Shown here piece by piece: positions 341 to 28,100 of a stretch of 44,212 bases of DNA; position 1 is the stretch's first letter, and each line of letters starts with the position of its first letter. Under the pieces are notes generated by a model. It saw nothing but the letters and a program-made list of their open reading frames with translations. It ran no database searches and was not told the origin of the DNA. This DNA is from Escherichia phage Henu5_1, in sequence record PQ133007; one strand, given 5' to 3'. The translations under genes were made by a program, and so were the position numbers.

Positions 341-2605
341 ATGAGCTTAATTAAATTCGCTGTAACACGACCCGCTAAAAAAGGCGAAAAAGCCAGGGCG
401 GAAAACTTCCAGATGACTACCGAAGAGTTTTTCGAATTTATCAATGACGCGAAAGAAATCTCCTCGGTGCATATCAACAAAACGGAAGATAAAGCCGAGT
501 ACGCCCGCCGCAAGCGTAAGGCCGATGGCATTGTGGCTTATACCAGTGATGGGCTGCGCCGCAAGACCAGTGCGGTGGACCGTTCGATCCTGTTCTTCGA
601 TATCGACCGTACCGACACCCGCACCCTACGCCGCTGCCGTAAGGCTTTCGTCGATGCGGGGCTGGAGCACGTATTCCATACAACAACCGGCGACCGCCAC
701 CCGCTGAAAGGCGGCACGCGTTGCGCACGTTTCCTTGTGCTCACGGACAAGCCTGTCTCGGCGGAAGACCTGGGCCGTGTCCAGTATGCGCTATTACACC
801 AACTGGGTCTGTCAGATGTGGACTTCGACGATTGCACGAAAGACACAAACCGCCTGATGTACCTGCCACACCAGCAGTCTGTTATTAAGTGCCACTATGG
901 CAAGCGCGCCCGCGTCCGTCGTCTGCTCCGCCTGGCGGATAAGCTGGGCGTGGAGAAAGAGGAAGTCCGCCGCGAGCTTACTCAGGGCGACGACGCAGTG
1001 GCAGACGGCATTCTGGACTGGTGCTTCCAGGCAGGATTCGAGGAGTTATCTTCCGGTCGCGGTTATGAAGTGCCGTGCCCGAACGAACATCTGCACAGCG
1101 GCGAAGGGTCGACGGCTATCATGGTCAAGGATGGCGAGATCCGTTTCAAGTGTATGCACACCGGTAACGAGTGTTGCTCGGAACTGAATAGACACCAGCA
1201 CCTGGCGCTACGTCTTATCGGGATCCCGGACCACCTGAACGTCGAGCCACACAATATGTCCCGTAAGCAAATCGCCGCCATCCTTCCGGGGCTGGACGAC
1301 GAGGAAGTCGAATCCTTATACGAACATATTGTTGATGCGGTTGGCGACGGCGAAGAATACGGCGTGTGCACCGATGCGGATCTGGATAACGAGCCGGTCG
1401 CGCTGTTCAGTAAGCACGACCCGATTATCGAGGGGTTGATTAACTTTAAATCGACCTGGTACATGGCGGGTGAGTCGAATATCGGTAAGTCTTTCTATGT
1501 GCTGGGCCAAATGGGCGCGGTTGCCGCAGGGATCCCGTTCGGCGGTGCGAAGGTCGTCCAGTCTCATTGCTTCTATTTCGACGCGGAAGGTGGTGAAGCC
1601 TCCAACCAGCGTAAGGAAGCATTGCAGATTAAATACGAGCACGACCTGGACAAGCTGCACATTATCGATCTGCAGTCACGCGGCTGGGATATCACCAGCA
1701 AGTCCGGCTTGCGTGAAGTTATCAGCTTTATCAACCGCACCGCTAACGGCGAACCGGTTGGCCTGGTGGCGTTCGACTCACTAAACCAGACTGTTGCGTT
1801 GCGGTCCGCTGATGCTAAACCGTTCGACGAGAACAACGCCAGCGATATGGGTGAAGTGGTCAAAGCGCTGAAGGCCATTGCGGAAAATACAGGAGGCAGT
1901 GCGGGCGTAATTCACCACCCGGCAAAAGGTGCAAACGGCAGCAGAACCCCACGCGGGTCCGGCGCGCTGCATGGTGCTGTCGATTCCGCTTTCTTCCTGG
2001 AACAGCCGGACGACAACCAGCCCGGACAATTGAACCTGTATCATGAGAAGTCCCGTAACGGCATCAAACAAGCGCCGCGCGGCTTCGTCCTGCTCAAGTG
2101 CAAGGTGAAGGTGGATCTCCGCAAGTCAGAAGCGTTCGCGTCGCACCAGTCCACCAGCACCGGGCCGGACTTCGGCGACGTTGTTGCCGGTTGGGACGTC
2201 AAACCAATTGCGTCCACGCCACGCGACGAGACTCTGTACCTCGTACCGGTCGCCCTGGCACCGTTCGCTATAGAACAGGCGAAGGCCGCGGGCAAAGCAG
2301 CAGTTAAGGAAGAGAACACCGCCGGTCCGCGCAACGAAAAAGAGAAAGTGCTTTATGCGGCCCTGGAAAAACTGATGGAAGATAACCCGAACCATACCGG
2401 CTTCAGTAAATCGGCAATTGTCCGCCAGGCTGGACTCGCGAAGGGTGGCACTTCGACGAAGGCAATCGACGATATGGTGGACCGCGGCGTGATTGGTTTC
2501 TATACAGATCCGCACACCGGGGCCATCTATGGGTCGTCGAATTTAGTCATCAAATCGGATATTCCCATAACGCTTTCGGCGACCGATGACGATCTAAAAG
2601 ATTAA
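341..2605 (+). CDS. DNA primase/helicase (primase-polymerase-like N-terminus plus RecA-like P-loop ATPase)
   Basis: 754 aa ORF; P-loop GESNIGKS in C-terminal half; size and layout typical of phage primase-helicase fusions. Confidence 0.65.
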   Translation: MSLIKFAVTRPAKKGEKARAENFQMTTEEFFEFINDAKEISSVHINKTEDKAEYARRKRKADGIVAYTSDGLRRKTSAVDRSILFFDIDRTDTRTLRRCRKAFVDAGLEHVFHTTTGDRHPLKGGTRCARFLVLTDKPVSAEDLGRVQYALLHQLGLSDVDFDDCTKDTNRLMYLPHQQSVIKCHYGKRARVRRLLRLADKLGVEKEEVRRELTQGDDAVADGILDWCFQAGFEELSSGRGYEVPCPNEHLHSGEGSTAIMVKDGEIRFKCMHTGNECCSELNRHQHLALRLIGIPDHLNVEPHNMSRKQIAAILPGLDDEEVESLYEHIVDAVGDGEEYGVCTDADLDNEPVALFSKHDPIIEGLINFKSTWYMAGESNIGKSFYVLGQMGAVAAGIPFGGAKVVQSHCFYFDAEGGEASNQRKEALQIKYEHDLDKLHIIDLQSRGWDITSKSGLREVISFINRTANGEPVGLVAFDSLNQTVALRSADAKPFDENNASDMGEVVKALKAIAENTGGSAGVIHHPAKGANGSRTPRGSGALHGAVDSAFFLEQPDDNQPGQLNLYHEKSRNGIKQAPRGFVLLKCKVKVDLRKSEAFASHQSTSTGPDFGDVVAGWDVKPIASTPRDETLYLVPVALAPFAIEQAKAAGKAAVKEENTAGPRNEKEKVLYAALEKLMEDNPNHTGFSKSAIVRQAGLAKGGTSTKAIDDMVDRGVIGFYTDPHTGAIYGSSNLVIKSDIPITLSATDDDLKD

Positions 2606-2664
2606 ATTTTGCGCGCATTGGTTGCCATTTTGTGTGCTTTTAGCTGGTCGCATTGGTTGCCGTG

Positions 2665-2870
2665 TAGTGTGAATATAATGCATAGTTATGCAATAAAACT
2701 GCATAAAGTAAGCGGGACAAAAAGCGGGACAAACCATGGGCGGGACAAAGCGGGACGGCACCCCTGTCCCGCCCGGATGACGCGGCCTGGCGAGGAGCGG
2801 GACAGGCGGGACAACTCCCAGTCTTTCAGACTAGACGGGGGTCAACGGCCCCCCTCGTCTGAGACTGCAT
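2665..2870. repeat. Iteron array: 7 copies of GCGGGACA/TGTCCCGC plus conserved hairpin (copy 1 of duplicated module)
   Basis: GCGGGACA at about 2712, 2724, 2740, 2750, 2797, 2806 and inverted TGTCCCGC at 2765; about 80 percent identical to 19495-19690. Confidence 0.7.
2819..2867. promoter_or_regulatory. Conserved 49-nt imperfect palindrome / stem-loop (copy 1)
   Basis: cagtct...agacggggg-loop-cccccctcgtct...agactg; outer and inner stems complementary; no adjacent T-run so not a canonical intrinsic terminator. Confidence 0.5.
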
Positions 2871-3026
2871 AAAATCCGGGATTGCAAAATACACGGCAGC
2901 ATGTCGCGGATTGCGGTCGTCGCTGAACTAGGCAACCAATGCGAGATGCAGAAAGCGGTGTGGAAAATGCAGTTTGCAGTTGCAACGGATAGCGATCGAC
3001 TTTTTCATGCGCATGATTAATATTGG

Positions 3027-3055
3027 TTGCATTCGTGCCAGCACCCTGCTAGATT
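3027..3055 (+). promoter_or_regulatory. Putative sigma70-like promoter (TTGCAT-17-TAGATT) overlapping two ATTGGTTGCA motifs
   Basis: -35 TTGCAT lies inside ATTGGTTGCAT; second motif copy overlaps -10/+1; about 25 nt upstream of GGAGG RBS of ORF 3083. Confidence 0.4.
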
Positions 3056-3082
3056 GGTTGCACACCAACAGGAGGGCGGAAC

Positions 3083-3262
3083 ATGAAAACCGAAATGGTT
3101 GATAAGCACGAAATCAAGATCGGCGATACGGTAGTCCACAACGGGGAGCTTCGCACTGTGTGCAGGCGAGCGTTTAGCATCGATGAATTTATGGGCCTGC
3201 TACTTTGGGGCGACAGCTATCGTTTAGGGCATAAACTGGTTGAGAGGGTTACGGAACTATGA
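3083..3262 (+). CDS. Small hypothetical protein (59 aa, below ORF-track threshold)
   Basis: ATG at 3083 preceded by GGAGG RBS; hand-translated MKTEMVDKHEIKIGDTVVHNGELRTV...; stop overlaps next start (ATGA at 3259). Confidence 0.5.
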   Translation: MKTEMVDKHEIKIGDTVVHNGELRTVCRRAFSIDEFMGLLLWGDSYRLGHKLVERVTEL

Positions 3263-6722: not shown

Positions 6723-7865
6723 ATGCACCCGCAAACTAAAATTACCGATGAGCAATTGATCGCAGAAATTCAGGCAGGGACTACGGTTAAAGAGATTGCG
6801 AAGAAATACGGGATTGCCCTGCGCAATGTCTATATGCGGAAAGCCCGCCTATCGAAAAAAGGAATTGGGCACGGCAACGATGCCGTAATCCGCAAGCGCG
6901 TTGCCGATGGCTTCGGCGTTAAGCGCGTATCGGCCCTGGTGCGCGGCAATGGCGAAGAGGTCATGTCGTGGGTCATCACTGAGCAGGACAAGGAGCGCCA
7001 ACTCGAAGCTATGCGCGCTGTTGTCGATGGCATGAACAGCGAAATCACACCGGCAGCGCCAGTAAAAGCCCCGCCAGTCCCGATCCAGGCGCTCGACTTG
7101 CTAAACCTGTACACCGTGTCAGACTTCCACCTGGGCATGTTGGCATGGGGCGAGGAGACTGGAGAAGACTGGGATATGGCGATCGCCGAAGACCTGTTCT
7201 ACCGCTGGTTTGTCGAAGCCTTCGCCCGCGCACCGGACGCAGGCACTGCCGTGATCAATATCCTCGGCGATATGGCGCACTTTGATAGCCTTGATGCCGT
7301 CACCCCCGCCAGCGGGCACGTACTGGATGCCGACACTCGATACCAGAAGTTGGTCCGCTATATGATACGCATGGTGCGCAACGTCGTAGACCTGGCGCTG
7401 CAAAAACACCATAAAGTCAAACTGCTAATCGTCCAGGGTAATCATGACGAGTCGGGCATGATTTGGCTTGCTGAGATGTTCAACACGCTGTACGAGAACG
7501 AGCCGCGCGTCGATGTGGATACGTCCCCGGACGTCTACAAAATGGTGCAGCACGGTAAGACCACGCTGTTTTTCCACCACGGGCACAAAGCGCGATTCGA
7601 TGCTATCGAGCAGGTTATGATCGCTAAATTCAGACAGGCGTTCGGGTCGAGCGAATACAGCTACGCGCACGTAGGTCATTTGCACCACCAGAAGATTGTC
7701 GAGTCTCGCAACATGATTGTTGAACAGCACCGGACGCTCGCAGCGAAAGACGCCTACGCCAGCCGCGGCGGCTGGATGAGCGGTCGCAGTGCCAACGTCA
7801 TTACCTACAGCGCCAACTACGGCGAAGTAGCGCGCTTAACCATTAGCCCGGAAATGTTGAAGTAA
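6723..7865 (+). CDS. HTH domain fused to calcineurin-like metallophosphoesterase
   Basis: N-terminal HTH-like TVKEIAKKYGIALRNVYMRKARL; phosphoesterase motifs DFH, GDMAHFD, GNHDE, HHGH, GHLHH. Confidence 0.6.
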   Translation: MHPQTKITDEQLIAEIQAGTTVKEIAKKYGIALRNVYMRKARLSKKGIGHGNDAVIRKRVADGFGVKRVSALVRGNGEEVMSWVITEQDKERQLEAMRAVVDGMNSEITPAAPVKAPPVPIQALDLLNLYTVSDFHLGMLAWGEETGEDWDMAIAEDLFYRWFVEAFARAPDAGTAVINILGDMAHFDSLDAVTPASGHVLDADTRYQKLVRYMIRMVRNVVDLALQKHHKVKLLIVQGNHDESGMIWLAEMFNTLYENEPRVDVDTSPDVYKMVQHGKTTLFFHHGHKARFDAIEQVMIAKFRQAFGSSEYSYAHVGHLHHQKIVESRNMIVEQHRTLAAKDAYASRGGWMSGRSANVITYSANYGEVARLTISPEMLK

Positions 7866-11462: not shown

Positions 11463-12549
11463 TCAATATATGGCGGATCGAATGATTCGCCGACACATTT
11501 TCACCCAGCGCCTGAGTAATGACCAGGCGCGAAGGGTGCTGTCCATGTGGGAGAAGTTCCGGCCTACATTACTGGGGAAGCTGACCGAGTTGCTTGATGG
11601 CAAATCGTCAATGAATAACCGGGCACTTTCCACCCTGCTAACGCAAATCGACAAGACCGTTAAAGCAGAATTGCGCACCGAGTTTAAGGCGTTGGCTGAA
11701 AGCCTTCAGGAGTTTGCCGACACCGAGGCCGATTATCTCGCCGACACATTAACGGCAGCGATCCAGCCGGCGGTCGCCGTACCTGCGGTCGAGGTGGTTG
11801 GCGTAGTGACCGGTGCGCAGATCGCAGCGACGGCTATGAAAAACCCGTTCCAGGGTAATACGATGATGCAATGGCCTGACTCACTTTCTGAGTGGACCAG
11901 GACGCAGATCGGTAATCAGGTGCGAGCGGGATTCATCCAGGGCAAGCCAACGATGGAAATTATCGCGGACGTGAGGCGCGCGCTAGGTGGTCGTAGTGCG
12001 CAAGCTATCTCGAGCGTTGTTAAGTCCGCAGTCAACCACTATGCGGCTACCGCCCGCGAACTAATGGTAAAAGCAAATGACGATATTCTCGAAGGTCGCC
12101 AATGGTTATCTACATTGGACACGCATACTTCTCCCATGTGCCAGCTACGCGATCGCCTGTTTTATCCGGTTGATGTTACTCCCGATACGAAAGGGAAGCG
12201 CGGCGGGAAAGTGGTGGCTGGATCACAATATGGCGCTGGTCCGGGCAAGTTGCATTATTGTTGCCGGTCTACGGAGACGTGGAAGGTTAAAGGCATGGAA
12301 GATTGGCCCAGTGGTAAGCGTCCGGCACTGAAGGCTGACGCGGGTCGATTGCTGAGTGAGCAGGTCGACGCGCAGACTGATTTCTTCTCATGGGTGCAGC
12401 GCCAGCCGCGCCATATCCTGGAAGAATTATACGGAGTGCAACGCGCCGACCAGATTATGCGCGGCGTGAAAGTGCCAAAGATGTTTACCGATTCTGGCGA
12501 ACTGATGACTATTGCGCAGCTTAAAAACCGGGGGTTATGGCGTGATTAA
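11446..12549 (+). CDS. Head morphogenesis / minor capsid protein (Mu gpF / SPP1 gp7-like)
   Basis: 367 aa, position after portal; assignment by gene order and general resemblance. Confidence 0.45.
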   Translation: MAKTINQYMADRMIRRHIFTQRLSNDQARRVLSMWEKFRPTLLGKLTELLDGKSSMNNRALSTLLTQIDKTVKAELRTEFKALAESLQEFADTEADYLADTLTAAIQPAVAVPAVEVVGVVTGAQIAATAMKNPFQGNTMMQWPDSLSEWTRTQIGNQVRAGFIQGKPTMEIIADVRRALGGRSAQAISSVVKSAVNHYAATARELMVKANDDILEGRQWLSTLDTHTSPMCQLRDRLFYPVDVTPDTKGKRGGKVVAGSQYGAGPGKLHYCCRSTETWKVKGMEDWPSGKRPALKADAGRLLSEQVDAQTDFFSWVQRQPRHILEELYGVQRADQIMRGVKVPKMFTDSGELMTIAQLKNRGLWRD

Positions 12550-19374: not shown

Positions 19375-19690
19375 GCGGGACAGGCGGGATGTCCCGTTTT
19401 GTCCCGCCACCATTAAACCGCATATATACTCACTTTCATTGCATAAACTAAAAGCGGGACGAGGGTGCTGTCCCGATCTGTCCCGCACCTTAAAAGTGAA
19501 TAGCTATGTGGTTTTTCTGCATAAAACAAACGGGACAGAAAGCGGGACAGAATGAGGCGGGACAAAGCGGGACAGCACCCCTGTCCCCGTCAGTGCTGCC
19601 GCGGGTTTTAGCCGATCGGGACAGGCGGGACAAAGCCCAGTCTTTCAGACTAGACGGGGGTCGATAGCCCCCCTCGTCTGAGACTGAATA
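19375..19690. repeat. GGGACA/TGTCCC repeat module (copy 2), about 12 copies plus conserved hairpin 19638-19686
   Basis: Direct and inverted GCGGGACA copies; 19495-19690 aligns with 2665-2870. Confidence 0.7.
19376..19400 (+). terminator. Rho-independent terminator built from GGGACA inverted repeat
   Basis: CGGGACA-GGCGGGA-TGTCCCG followed by TTTT directly after stop at 19370. Confidence 0.5.
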
Positions 19691-19754
19691 AGGTTTGTTT
19701 TAAATTCGCTGATACAATGACCGACGGCAACTGCATAAAAAGGGGGACTGCATA

Positions 19755-25162: not shown

Positions 25163-28100
25163 CGATTGTATACGACGTCACAGGCCATAAAGGCGGCGGG
25201 GGGAAACAGCACACCCCACAGGAGACGCCTGATAGCCTGCATTCGCTGGCTAAAATCCGCATCTTGCTTGCGCTTGGTGAAGGGGAATTCGAAGGCATTA
25301 CGAGCGCCAGCGAATTGCGGCAGCGTGTATACCTGGACGGAACACCGATCCAGAACGCAGACCTGTCTGAAAACTTCCCCGGAGCGCGCGTGGAGTTCCG
25401 CCCCGGCACACAGCACCAGGATGTGATCCACGGATTTTCAGCGGTGGAAAGTGAGCAATCCGTTGGGGTAAAACTGGAGAACGGCACGCCGTGGGTGCGC
25501 CAGATTAACGACACCAGTCTTGACGCCGTGCGAATTCGCATCGGCATTCCGGCCCTGTACACAAACGAAGATAATGGCGACCTGGTGGGCGGGCGCATCG
25601 ACTATAAGATCGTTGTATATACGGATAACGCAGACCCGCGTGAGTTTACATTCGCTGCCGTTGGTAAAACAATGTCGCTGTACGAGCGCGATCACCGCAT
25701 CGAGCTACCGCCGAACGTTAACACCGGCTGGCGCGTGGAGGTGCACCGCATAACGGCAGACTCCACATCGGCGAAAGTGGTTAATGATATCCGGGTGCAA
25801 TCCATCACTGAGATTATCGACGCCCGCCTGCGTTACCCGCTAACCGCGCTGTTGTTCGTGGAGTTCGACGCTAAAGCGTTCCAGAACATCCCGCGCGTGT
25901 CCATTAAGTGCAAAGGTCGCAAGGTGTTGATCCCGAACAACTACGACCCGATTAATCATACCTATTCCGGGGACTGGGACGGCACGTTTAAACGCGCATG
26001 GACGGATAACCCTGCGTGGCACTGGTACGATATTTGTATTACTGAGCGCTTCGGCCTCGGTCGGCGTATCAAACCGCAAATGCTAAACCGATACGCGCTC
26101 TACCAGATTGCGCAGCGCTGCGATCAACTGGTCAGCGACGGCAACGGTGGTCGAGAGATCCGCTTTAAGAATGATATGTACATTCAGTCACAGACGGATG
26201 CCTGGACCGTGCTTAAGGATTTGGCTGCCATCTTCGCCGGAATGACCTGGTGGGGTAACCAGATGTTGAATATCGTCAGTGACCAACCGGTCGCAGCAGT
26301 GTCGCACACTATAACCAACGCATCGGTAATTGATGGGCGATTCGACTACGCATCCGGTAGCCAGAAAACGCGGTACTCCACTTTCGCGGTAGCCTACGGC
26401 AACCCGAAAAACCACTATGAGGACGCTATCGCAACGGGCCAGCGCGTCGAACTGGTGCGCCGCCATAAGATTAACCGTCTCGACATCACGGCTATCGGCT
26501 GTACGCGCGAATCCGAAGCGCAACGCCGCGGACACTGGGCGCTAATCTCAAACCAGCTTGACCAGCAGGTCAGCTTCAAGGTTGGCATGGAAGGTCTATT
26601 CTTTATTCCGGGTAGCGTAGTCGCGATCGCAGATACTAATATTTCTGGCGGATTCGAGACTCGCGGCGGTCGCCTGTTGTCAGACCCCGGCACGCGTACC
26701 GTGCTTAACACAGACAGCGAAATCACATTCCGCCCTGGTGATAAGTTCCTGGTACGCACCGATAGCGGAAATGTGGAGACTCGCGAGATCGCCAGCGTCA
26801 ACGGCAACAAGGTCACGCTAAAAACCGCACTGGATGCCGACCCGATTCCCAACCAGCCGTTTTGCGTTGATGGCGATGATATCCAGTTGCAGAAATTCCG
26901 CATCACCGATCTGGAATATGACGACTCTACCAGCACTTTCTCGGTGCGCGGGATTGAATACAACGATAGCAAGTATGATGCCGTTGATAATGGCGCTCGC
27001 CTTGATCCTGGTATCTTCACGCAAGTGCCAGACGGTGTAATGAAGGGGCCGGAATCCGTTACCATCACCCCGTCGCAGATCTCATCGCAGGGCCAGCTAA
27101 TCACCAACGTGGATATTGTTTTCCCGCCGGTGAAAGATGCCGTGGTGTATGAAATCCAGTGGCGGCGTACAAGCCTGCAGAATATGGAAATACAGTGGGG
27201 TAACGACTGGGTGAATATCCCACGCACGGCGTCGAATGGGGCGCACATCCCTAACGTGTTCTCCGGCAACTACCAGGCACGCGTCCGCGCAATTGGCATG
27301 GGCGAAATCTCGTCCCCATGGGTGTCTTCCGCGATCACGCCGGTGGAAGGTCGCCTCGGTGGGCTTAACGCACCAATCATCACCAACGCTATCTCGGGTC
27401 TGCACCAGATTCTATGGAAGTGGAATCACAACAACGCTGCGACTGATATCTCATACACCGAGCTTGAAGTGCGCAAGACTGGTGAGACGGAATGGAAGTT
27501 CTTAACAAACGTCCCGTATCCTGGCGCGGAGTACGCGCAAACGTCGCTGGAGTTCGGCATATACCAGCAGTTGCGCGCCCGTGTAGCGGATAAAATCGGC
27601 AACCTGTCGGACTGGTCGGCCCCGTTTGAAGGGCAGGTGAGTGACAAAGTTGACGAGTACATGAAGGGGCTTGATGACGAGTTCTTGACTTCCGAGGATG
27701 GTAAACGCTTCCAGGAAGCCATCGACACGATCCCGCAGGGTATTTACGAGGCGATGCTCACCGACGCGCAGCAATTGTTCAACGCCCGCGCCGAGTACAA
27801 GGGCATTTATGCGGAAATCAAGGTGGCGTATAACGTGGCGGCGGACGCCCACAAGGCGGTCGCTCAACTGGAGACGTTGATCGGCACGCGACTTGACGAT
27901 GCGGAAGCGGCGATCCACACGTTGCAGACAGCGCAAAGCACGCACGAGCAAGCCTTCGCCCAGTACCAGCAAACTGTTGCCGCTAAGTTCGGGGAACAGG
28001 AAGCTGCCATCCAGCAGGTACAAACGGCAACGGCAGACGTAGCGGGCGCGCTGGCGGAGTACAAGACCCAGGTAGCGGCACAGTTCGATCAGCAGTCTGC

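Follow-up and report, generated by a model that had tools for sequence, protein, structure and literature searches.

The DNA analysed here is a stretch of 44,212 nucleotides from Escherichia phage Henu5_1 (sequence record PQ133007), referred to below as the window, and it represents a complete or near-complete Dhillonvirus genome of the HK578 / JL1 / SSL-2009a / SO-1 group. Dhillonviruses are common, widely used coliphages that are found in the BASEL collection and among phage-therapy isolates, and we know of no replication origin that has been mapped in this genus or in the related Guernseyvirinae. From position 1 to about 31.7 kb the genes lie on the plus strand and encode an HTH protein (1-330) and a primase-helicase (341-2605), followed by small genes, lysis genes, a metallophosphoesterase/exonuclease gene (6723-7865), terminase genes, and head and tail genes; the genes from 31.7 to 44.0 kb, the polymerase gene among them, lie on the minus strand. 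The ORF at 6723-7865 had originally been described as an HTH protein but is instead a metallophosphoesterase / DNA-repair exonuclease. Two gaps in this gene order hold modules built of short repeats, one 3' of the primase-helicase gene (locus B) and one inside the tail operon (locus A). In the portion of the SO-1 GenBank record available to us, a note marks both gaps, as 'region A' and as 'region B ... direct, inverted and palindromic repeat sequences', and this is the sole prior mention that we found. We found no published analysis of these regions, papers on Dhillonvirus, HK578, SO-1, and phiEap-2 being silent on the repeats, and a literature search with the octamer returned unrelated papers only.

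A conserved repeat array follows the primase-helicase gene

Between positions 2500 and 3200, the window is 90 to 94% identical to many Dhillonvirus phages. The gap 3' of the primase-helicase stop codon (at 2605) is 477 bp long, and its first elements are two ATTGGTTGC motifs. They are followed by an AT-rich stretch at 2660-2711 (plus strand) containing GTGAATATAATGCATAGTTATGCA and CTGCATAAA, both of them versions of a GTGAATAGTTATGCA motif that all related lineages share and that is conserved in St162, phiEap-2, AH01, L068, L070, L077, and L082. The original prediction had noted an AT-rich flank, which proves to be real and of moderate strength, with 69% A+T compared with ~45% for the genome. 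This stretch is a candidate unwinding region and/or entry promoter; that it is modest and present on one flank only counts against an origin.

The array itself starts 107 bp after the stop codon, directly downstream of the primase-helicase gene as had been claimed. Its 102 bp (2712-2813) contain seven copies of GCGGGAC, one of them inverted, in good agreement with the seven copies, one inverted, originally counted in about 100 bp. Six of the seven are exact copies of the octamer GCGGGACA, starting at 2712, 2724, 2740, 2797, and 2806 on the plus strand and occupying 2765-2772 on the minus strand, and the remaining plus-strand copy, at 2750, deviates in its eighth letter (GCGGGACg). The first three exact copies and the deviating one form a block of four direct repeats (2712-2757, plus strand). 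The fourth of these pairs with the inverted copy, TGTCCCGC (2765-2772), in a small inverted repeat at 2750-2772 that folds as DNA with -9.8 kcal/mol (z = -3.25), a stability that none of 200 shuffles matched; the GGGAC...GTCCC pairing is retained among relatives, and its loop varies. After a locus-specific spacer of ~24 bp come two further direct repeats (2797 and 2806, together spanning 2797-2813 on the plus strand), which lie 8 or 9 nt apart in relatives. The helical-turn spacing that had been attributed to the array is only loosely true, since the direct copies follow one another at start-to-start distances of 12, 16, 10, 47, and 9 nt. The array is followed by a long imperfect palindrome of 47 nt at 2820-2866, AGTCTTTCAGACTAGACGGGGGTC-loop-GCCCCCCTCGTCTGAGACT and then GCATAA, which folds as DNA with -11.4 kcal/mol (z = -2.6) and corresponds to the large hairpin of the original prediction. 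Further 3' lies ACGGCAGC (2893-2900, plus strand), an ACGGCARC-type octamer that marks the return of homology after the exchanged cassette described below.

Counted over the whole window, the exact octamer GCGGGACA occurs 15 times compared with 2.15 +/- 1.62 expected, and none of 100 shuffled controls reached 15, which confirms the repeat observation. The shorter GCGGGAC occurs in shuffled sequence at a rate of 9.6 per window, corresponding to ~0.02 copies per 102 bp, in keeping with the earlier statement that an 8-mer is expected well under once by chance in such a span. GC skew and cumulative skew had no feature at 2.7 or 19.5 kb; the skew tracks gene orientation only and is thus uninformative on origins.

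Matches to the module were found in 158 phage records, exclusively Dhillonvirus, each of which contains it in at least two places. Across 30 distinct Dhillonvirus module copies, taken from IMG/VR, SO-1, and this genome, conservation of the repeat cores was 0.98 to 1.00 and that of the spacers was 0.75 to 0.96, and the arms of the long hairpin scored 0.99 to 1.00 and its loop scored 0.73; the 3' arm (0.99) was not constrained by the search pattern. Invariant cores combined with drifting spacers and loop are what one expects of sites bound by protein and of a palindrome constrained by its structure. The repeats might alternatively belong to a host or mobile family (REP/ERIC-like, MITE, or common terminator) without any phage-specific function. 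The presence of two copies of the module, which must have been duplicated at least once, is what such a family would predict, but the module is confined to Dhillonvirus records, has no match among 5,426 complete E. coli genomes, and has a repeat that tracks the phage lineage and not the host. A host or mobile family can therefore be discounted with near certainty, and the specific suggestion of a common host terminator family, raised in the original prediction, is refuted by the absence of any match in those 5,426 genomes.

The primase-helicase ends in a predicted winged helix

The primase-helicase gene (341-2605, plus strand) encodes a protein of 754 aa. Its N terminus is an AEP-fold primase (about aa 1-205), followed by a Cys/His zinc-ribbon-like segment (about aa 240-290), a RepA-like AAA_25 helicase detected by Pfam at aa 357-531 and extending beyond, and then a linker. 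Pfam has no family for the N- or C-terminal parts, and a PDB sequence search with the whole protein gave only a weak match to RSF1010 RepA. In an AF2 model of aa 600-754, aa 660-739 have pLDDT values of 81 to 93 and adopt the topology H1-b-H2-turn-H3-b-wing-b. Foldseek matched this C-terminal model to winged helices of MarR, ArsR, RIO2, and histone H1, with probabilities of up to 0.99 and E values of at least 0.011. The C-terminal segment is thus a predicted winged helix by fold, and the Foldseek matches do not assign it to a family. This domain (aa 666-737, encoded by 2336-2551 on the plus strand) is the proposed reader of GCGGGACA; its parts are H1 (666-681), H2 (690-697), H3 (703-715; GTSTKAIDDMVDR), and the wing (721-734). 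The protein ends in a conserved acidic tail, DDDLKD.

Related lineages have a similar layout and different repeats

Relatives whose primase-helicase is 37 to 69% identical carry an array directly 3' of the stop codon. The usual order of its parts is one or two repeat copies, GAATAGTTATGCA...GTGAATAGTTATGC, about four direct repeats, an inverted copy, a spacer of ~28 bp, two or three direct repeats, the long hairpin, and ..CACGGCA(A/G)CA. The repeat itself differs between lineages: it is CGGGACA in Dhillonvirus and in L054 (68% identical), CGGACAA in phiEap-2, AH01, and L072-75, TCCGACA in L068, L077, and L081, AGGGATA in L070, GGGGAGA in the St162 group, GGGGATG in L082, TTGCGAGT in the VLCpiS11a group, and TTCCGCACA in Tsm2. 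The last two, the VLCpiS11a group and Tsm2, have a variant layout and a different long hairpin. Across the related lineages, a long hairpin of lineage-specific sequence occupies the equivalent position, and in several of them its loop contains an extra inverted copy of the lineage's own repeat (TCTGTCGGA, TCTGTCCGA), a feature absent from the Dhillonvirus loop.

When 7-mers were ranked by local clustering without prior knowledge of the repeat, the array came first in four of six genomes (the window, St162, VLCpiS11a, and AH01) and also in the partial phiEap-2 locus; the Tsm2 array was not ranked first by this procedure and was recognised by reading the sequence. A search of a plasmid database yielded no characterised replicon, its only find being a Kagunavirus-like phage genome deposited as a plasmid. 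The clade L064-L071 keeps the winged helix and has no array after the gene and none within the 10-kb loci, an observation that counts against the origin model.

The repeat changes with the C-terminal domain of the primase-helicase

Three pairs of relatives have primase-helicase cores (residues 1-640) of very similar sequence and arrays of different repeats. phiEap-2 (CGGACAA) and L077 (TCCGACA) are 99% identical over the core and 48% identical over the C terminus; the corresponding values are 96% and 48% for AH01 (CGGACAA) and L068 (TCCGACA) and 97% and 45% for L072 (CGGACAA) and St162 (GGGGAGA). In all three pairs, DNA homology of 88 to 95% ends 100 to 104 codons before the stop codon and returns 223 to 272 nt after it, and these breakpoints delimit an exchanged unit of ~530 to 580 bp, consisting of the C-terminal domain, the array, and the hairpin. 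The homologous flanks of the three pairs hold an XRE HTH gene on one side and a ACGGCAAC motif and the next promoter on the other. In these in silico comparisons, the repeat class follows the C-terminal domain of the primase-helicase and not the protein core. In line with this, the turn and the start of helix 3 have a common sequence in lineages with the same repeat, despite cores that are only 76 to 82% identical: the signature is GGGNxRRR with CGGACAA, GDGGRRRPA with TCCGACA, and GKGGDRYK with GGGGAGA.

In a comparison of gene families within +/-3.5 kb, from which ORFs nested inside the primase-helicase gene were set aside, the primase-helicase was the sole family present in 12/12 array-bearing lineages. 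The upstream HTH protein (ORF 1-330, HTH_23-type) was considered as the reader and rejected. It is replaced by an unrelated XRE-type HTH protein in 10 of the 11 other array-bearing lineages, and the XRE HTH protein is 90 to 95% identical in pairs whose arrays differ.

Three independent exchanges with the same boundaries, located at a disordered linker, and with no other candidate gene in the cassette make the C-terminal domain the best candidate by far, and from this covariation it is very probable that the repeats are bound by the C-terminal domain of the primase-helicase. The original prediction had held that the binding protein could not be assigned; an assignment can now be inferred, because the repeat changes with the C-terminal ~100 residues in all three pairs. 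Because the domain lies right next to the array, linkage, and not function, could account in part for their joint exchange. The long hairpin also lies inside the exchanged cassette. The exchange moves it along with the C-terminal domain and leaves the primase domain in place, so a link to the winged helix, or a purely structural role, is more likely for the hairpin than sequence-specific reading by the primase.

The limits of the cassette also bear on the proposal that the array serves in packaging (pac) or as a centromere-like site, bound by the small terminase or by a different structural or segregation protein. Some pac and centromere sites typically consist of short repeats in clusters, and the linear GenBank records of phiEap-2 and AH01 end 0.6 to 0.9 kb after the primase-helicase gene. 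The terminase genes, however, are 5 kb off and outside the exchanged cassette, and no partition genes were seen. In addition, headful packaging with a circular assembly has been reported for the genus Dhillonvirus (PMC9022532), and the cos sequence claimed for phage EE09 (PMC10673088) is absent from this genome stretch. We consider a packaging or centromere function highly improbable. A packaging site or a regulator array had originally been called 'equally possible' alternatives to an origin; both are now less likely, because the terminase and the upstream HTH protein lie outside the cassette and the HTH protein is 90 to 95% identical where the arrays differ.

The module could also be transcribed and act as a structured RNA, either a small regulatory RNA or a primer/R-loop RNA, in which direct and inverted copies pair. 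With RNA parameters, strong alternative hairpins of ~-35 kcal/mol form between 2765 and 2797-2813; the position of the hairpin is conserved across lineages, and promoter-like sequences containing GTGAATAGTT lie upstream in relatives. Against this, the repeats are mostly direct and their spacers vary, as expected of sites bound by protein and not of paired helices, and the repeat covaries with a DNA-binding fold. Moreover, no sigma-70 consensus was found upstream, and a search of the whole window against Rfam 15 gave no match at the gathering threshold. A structured RNA is thus very unlikely.

A second module lies in the tail operon

A second cluster of GCGGGACA-type repeats, missed by the original prediction, lies at 19375-19632 and contributes at least seven further copies. 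It fills a 385-bp gap between the gene for the tail assembly chaperone (G/GT, end at ~19370) and the tape measure gene (19755), and locus A thereby accounts for this non-coding gap inside the tail operon. The upstream part of the locus (19375-19486) comprises two units (19375-19407 and 19454-19486), in each of which GCGGGAC occurs once in direct and twice in inverted orientation, and an AT-rich stretch with TGCATAAA lies between them. The module that follows (19503-19685, plus strand) has the same part order as 2670-2866 and is 84% identical to locus B over 240 nt. At its 5' end, GTGAATAGCTATG...CTGCATAAA precedes four direct repeats (19530, 19542, 19557, and 19567), which are followed by an inverted copy (19582), a spacer, two direct copies (19616 and 19625), and a palindrome (19639-19685) that folds as DNA with -10.8 kcal/mol (z = -2.7). 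A copy of ACGGCAAC lies 3' of the hairpin at 19724-19731 (plus strand). Loci A and B are co-oriented and 16.8 kb apart, and every Dhillonvirus record contains the locus A module.

Three lineages, namely, Dhillonvirus, VLCpiS11a, and Tsm2, have a complete second module built from their own repeat. In VLCpiS11a it occupies the intergenic gap between the spanin and head morphogenesis genes, and in Tsm2 its gap is flanked by a tail protein gene and the spanin gene; these differing insertion sites suggest that the module can be duplicated into intergenic gaps. In AH01-type genomes, a pair of CGGACAGgaaCGGACAA sequences beside an sRNA-like element was considered as a second array. The same pair is identical in a TCCGACA-class genome, and because it does not covary with the cassette, it does not qualify as a genuine second array. 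For a simple origin, one would not expect another complete module within the tail operon, and locus A in this respect counts against the origin model. By analogy, locus A could serve as another origin or, like crr in phage P4, as a cis-acting partner, and we judge the chances that it has the same activity as locus B to be about even.

The positions of the two modules raise the question of whether the arrays control transcription and not replication, with a phage protein, possibly the primase-helicase winged helix itself, bound to the repeats. The palindrome would serve as a terminator or roadblock, which at locus B would set the switch from the early replication operon to the downstream genes and at locus A would lower read-through from the tail-tube and chaperone genes into the tape measure and distal tail genes. 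Consistent with this suggestion, both modules lie at operon-like boundaries and are co-oriented with transcription, and the position of locus A between the chaperone and tape measure genes would suit control of stoichiometry. There is a promoter-like TTGCAT-17-TAGATT before gene 3083, a conserved TGATACAAT extended -10 after locus A, and a TTGACA-17-TATTGT after the module in relatives. The palindrome, however, lacks a U/T tract, and a consensus scan of 2550-3150 found no terminator and no sigma-70 promoter in locus B; the equivalent promoter and terminator scan of locus A gave a single weak minus-strand call composed of the repeats themselves. Furthermore, the array is not at the promoter of the primase-helicase gene, the second module occupies different places in different genera, and only one protein segment covaries with the repeat, and it belongs to a replication enzyme. 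Transcriptional control in place of replication is accordingly unlikely, and a role as terminator, attenuator, or operator could possibly coexist with origin function.

Locus B as a candidate replication origin

The comparative evidence points to an iteron-type replication origin at locus B that would be read by the C-terminal domain of the initiator helicase itself, a reading to which we assign a probability of roughly 0.7; with the same confidence, locus B (about 2660-2900) would be the origin or an essential part of one. Replication-origin iterons beside an initiator-type gene had been the first choice of the original prediction, and we infer that this choice was the right one to favour. 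In the mechanism that we envisage, newly made primase-helicase would bind the repeats through its winged helix, as the covariation suggests. By analogy with other initiators, the protomers gathered on the array may then assemble the RepA-like ring helicase, which may open the AT-rich DNA and/or the palindromes and so load itself. More speculatively, the AEP primase might make the first primer nearby, possibly at the ACGGCARC octamer just 3' of the hairpin, and locus A would act as a second origin or as a cis-acting partner in the style of P4 crr.

Several features of this model are known from other mobile elements. In the staphylococcal pathogenicity islands (SaPIs), the C-terminal winged helix of Rep or PriRep reads 6 to 12 iterons that lie immediately 3' of rep and constitute the origin; some members have a primase fused to the helicase (PriRep, SaPI5), and each protein is specific for its own origin (PMC9371898). 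The phage described here likewise has at least six short repeats 3' of the initiator ORF (seven at 2712-2813), a predicted C-terminal winged helix on the helicase polypeptide, and an apparent cognate specificity between domain and iterons, seen in silico in the exchange in three pairs. The systems differ in that SaPI Rep is a 3'-5' helicase of the AAA+/SF3 clade, whereas the helicase here is of the RecA-type AAA_25/RepA-like kind, and in that the SaPI origin has an AT-rich centre between opposed iterons, whereas locus B has an AT-rich 5' flank, one inverted copy in seven, and a long palindrome after the array. There are also two modules per genome here, and the proteins have no sequence homology to those of the SaPIs.

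The alpha protein of phage P4 combines a primase with a DnaG-like motif, an SF3 helicase, and a C-terminal winged-helix origin-binding domain on one polypeptide, and its iterons are octamers, TGTTCACC, at two loci, ori and crr, which are 4.5 kb apart. Alpha, ori, and crr are said to have been described by Ziegelin et al. in 1993 (EMBO J), by Flensburg and Calendar in 1987 (JMB), and by Yeo et al. in 2002 (Mol Microbiol). The primase-helicase studied here similarly unites a primase, a helicase, and a predicted winged helix of origin-binding type, and its octamer repeats are likewise found at two loci (2712-2813 and 19375-19632), but the primase is AEP-fold, the helicase is AAA_25, and 16.8 kb separate the two loci. 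The top fold matches of the C-terminal model did not include the P4 origin-binding domain, and the PDB matches contained no P4 chain.

ORF904 of plasmid pRN1 has an AEP primase, a helicase, and a winged helix, and an essential stem-loop, conserved in structure and not in sequence, lies 54 bp 3' of the gene; similar layouts have been noted in some phages (PMC4234260). The order AEP primase, helicase, winged helix and the positionally conserved hairpin 3' of the gene are found here too. The pRN1 protein, in contrast, has an SF3 helicase, and its stem-loop is ~100 nt long and without iterons, whereas here an AAA_25 helicase is combined with a 47-nt hairpin that follows seven repeats.

The IncQ plasmid RSF1010 has an origin, oriV, in which RepC binds iterons of about 20 bp and the two strands each carry an ssi hairpin. 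In work by Scherzinger et al. and by Geibel et al. (2009, PNAS), RepC, the RepA helicase, and the RepB' primase that serve oriV are reportedly separate proteins. A RepB'-like primase and a RepA-like helicase are present here as well, but on one polypeptide, together with 8-mers in place of the long iterons and one palindrome per module, and no other gene family is common to the array loci. Among lambdoid phages, exchange of O and ori gives rise to type-specific replication in mosaic phages, and the DNA-binding part of lambda O and the iterons are said, in studies by Furth, Moore, Blattner, and colleagues, to be inherited as one exchangeable unit. An initiator DNA-binding part and its iterons appear to have been exchanged as one unit here too, with two differences: the lambda iterons lie inside the O gene and not after it, and the lambda helicase is host DnaB brought by P, whereas here the initiator is itself a primase-helicase.

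Overall, locus B would represent a known design, an initiator-helicase with its own winged helix and with iterons after its gene, on a different scaffold, that of an AEP primase and a RepA-type helicase, and the additions to this design are the palindrome and the duplicated module. The own-winged-helix initiator logic of the SaPIs, P4, and pRN1 would thus extend to an AEP-primase / RepA-type helicase protein. The design is familiar to specialists from other mobile elements, and the result is well supported and unsurprising. It gives Dhillonvirus a concrete origin candidate and a named protein domain expected to read it, and because the natural swap pairs predict which domain-array combinations are compatible, origin specificity is directly testable. 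Practical uses might include safe sites for phage engineering, phage-derived replicons, and decoy arrays that titrate the initiator.

A wider replication 'code' can be imagined in which an exchangeable specificity cassette, two co-oriented modules, and ACGGCARC primase sites work together; as a whole we regard it as rather unlikely. Its cassette would consist of the winged helix, its iterons, and the hairpin. The two modules, 16.8 kb apart, would have to cooperate in the manner of P4 ori and crr or fire as twin unidirectional origins. ACGGCARC would be the recognition or start site of the AEP primase, where the enzyme would both make the initial primer at the origin and prime lagging strands throughout the genome. 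ACGGCARC showed only a moderate strand bias, and a strong one was not confirmed. An octamer of this type lies 25 to 35 nt 3' of the hairpin in every lineage, and ACGGCARC is ~tenfold over-represented, flanks every module, and is conserved across genera.

Short motifs and promoter-like sites

The octamer ACGGCARC occurs 51 times in the whole window against 4.8 ± 2.2 expected, with a moderate strand bias (30:9 in the plus-strand gene block and 5:7 in the minus-strand block), and its copies in the window share no extended flanking consensus. One copy is always found 25 to 35 nt 3' of the module hairpin, as at 2893-2900 in locus B and 19724-19731 in locus A, and this hairpin-proximal copy is the point at which homology between related phages resumes past the exchanged cassette. 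Heptamers related to the octamer are the most abundant 7-mers in relatives, CGGCAAC numbering 47 in Salmonella phage St162 and CGGCAGC 70 in VLCpiS11a. ACGGCARC could be recognised by the primase, or it could act as a signal for recombination or at the RNA level.

A second motif, ATTGGTTGC, is present in 15 exact copies in the window (30 with at most one mismatch, against 12 expected), for the most part paired within intergenic gaps; sites include 2617, 2652, 2932(-), 3022, 3053, 13785(-), 34566(-), 34583(-), 37524(-), 32905 and 44015, among others. The copies at 3022 and 3053 form a pair that overlaps both the -35 and the -10 element of a promoter-like sequence, TTGCAT-17-TAGATT, ahead of gene 3083. 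ATTGGTTGC has the look of an operator or promoter motif of the phage, and its partner is possibly the HTH protein of ORF 1-330. The original prediction had also taken ORF 6723-7865 to encode an HTH protein; the ORF instead matches Pfam Metallophos/Metallophos_2 and PHROG 704 ("DNA repair exonuclease"). Its homologue in SO-1 is annotated as "putative transcriptional regulator."

In the stretch that follows the hairpin of locus A (19686-19754), the sequence GCTGATACAAT is conserved in all Dhillonviruses and has the form of an extended -10 element (TGnTAnnnT). This suggests that the tape measure and distal tail genes have a dedicated promoter.

In the Guernseyvirinae relatives Pantoea phage AH01 and St162, a conserved strong promoter (TTGACA-N17-TATAAT) is followed by a GC-rich element of about 150 nt adjoining the spanin gene; they lie at about 12180-12340 in AH01 and about 25470-25690 in St162. 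The differences between the two phages within the GC-rich element look compensatory, and the element is a candidate small RNA. No such element was seen in the window.

The primase-helicase and its downstream region in relatives

Every primase-helicase compared ends in an acidic tail, D-x-D-L-E/K-D (amino acids 749-754 of the window protein; 2585-2602), which is kept even where the C-terminal domain has been exchanged. Similar acidic tails tether T7 gp4 and gp2.5 to the DNA polymerase. In one clade of IMG/VR relatives (L064-L071), the C-terminal winged helix is retained with the turn GPGGGRRPA, only terminator-like hairpins and opposite-strand genes follow the primase-helicase gene, and no repeat array was found within the 10-kb loci searched. 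In another IMG/VR relative, L078, the gap 3' of this gene is filled by seven copies of TGGTTGC.

The record CP088689.1 is filed as the 44-kb E. coli plasmid pC16EC0033-2, and its primase-helicase is 34% identical to the window protein. It appears to be the genome of a Kagunavirus-like phage, which suggests that the clinical isolate carried the phage or that its assembly was contaminated with it.
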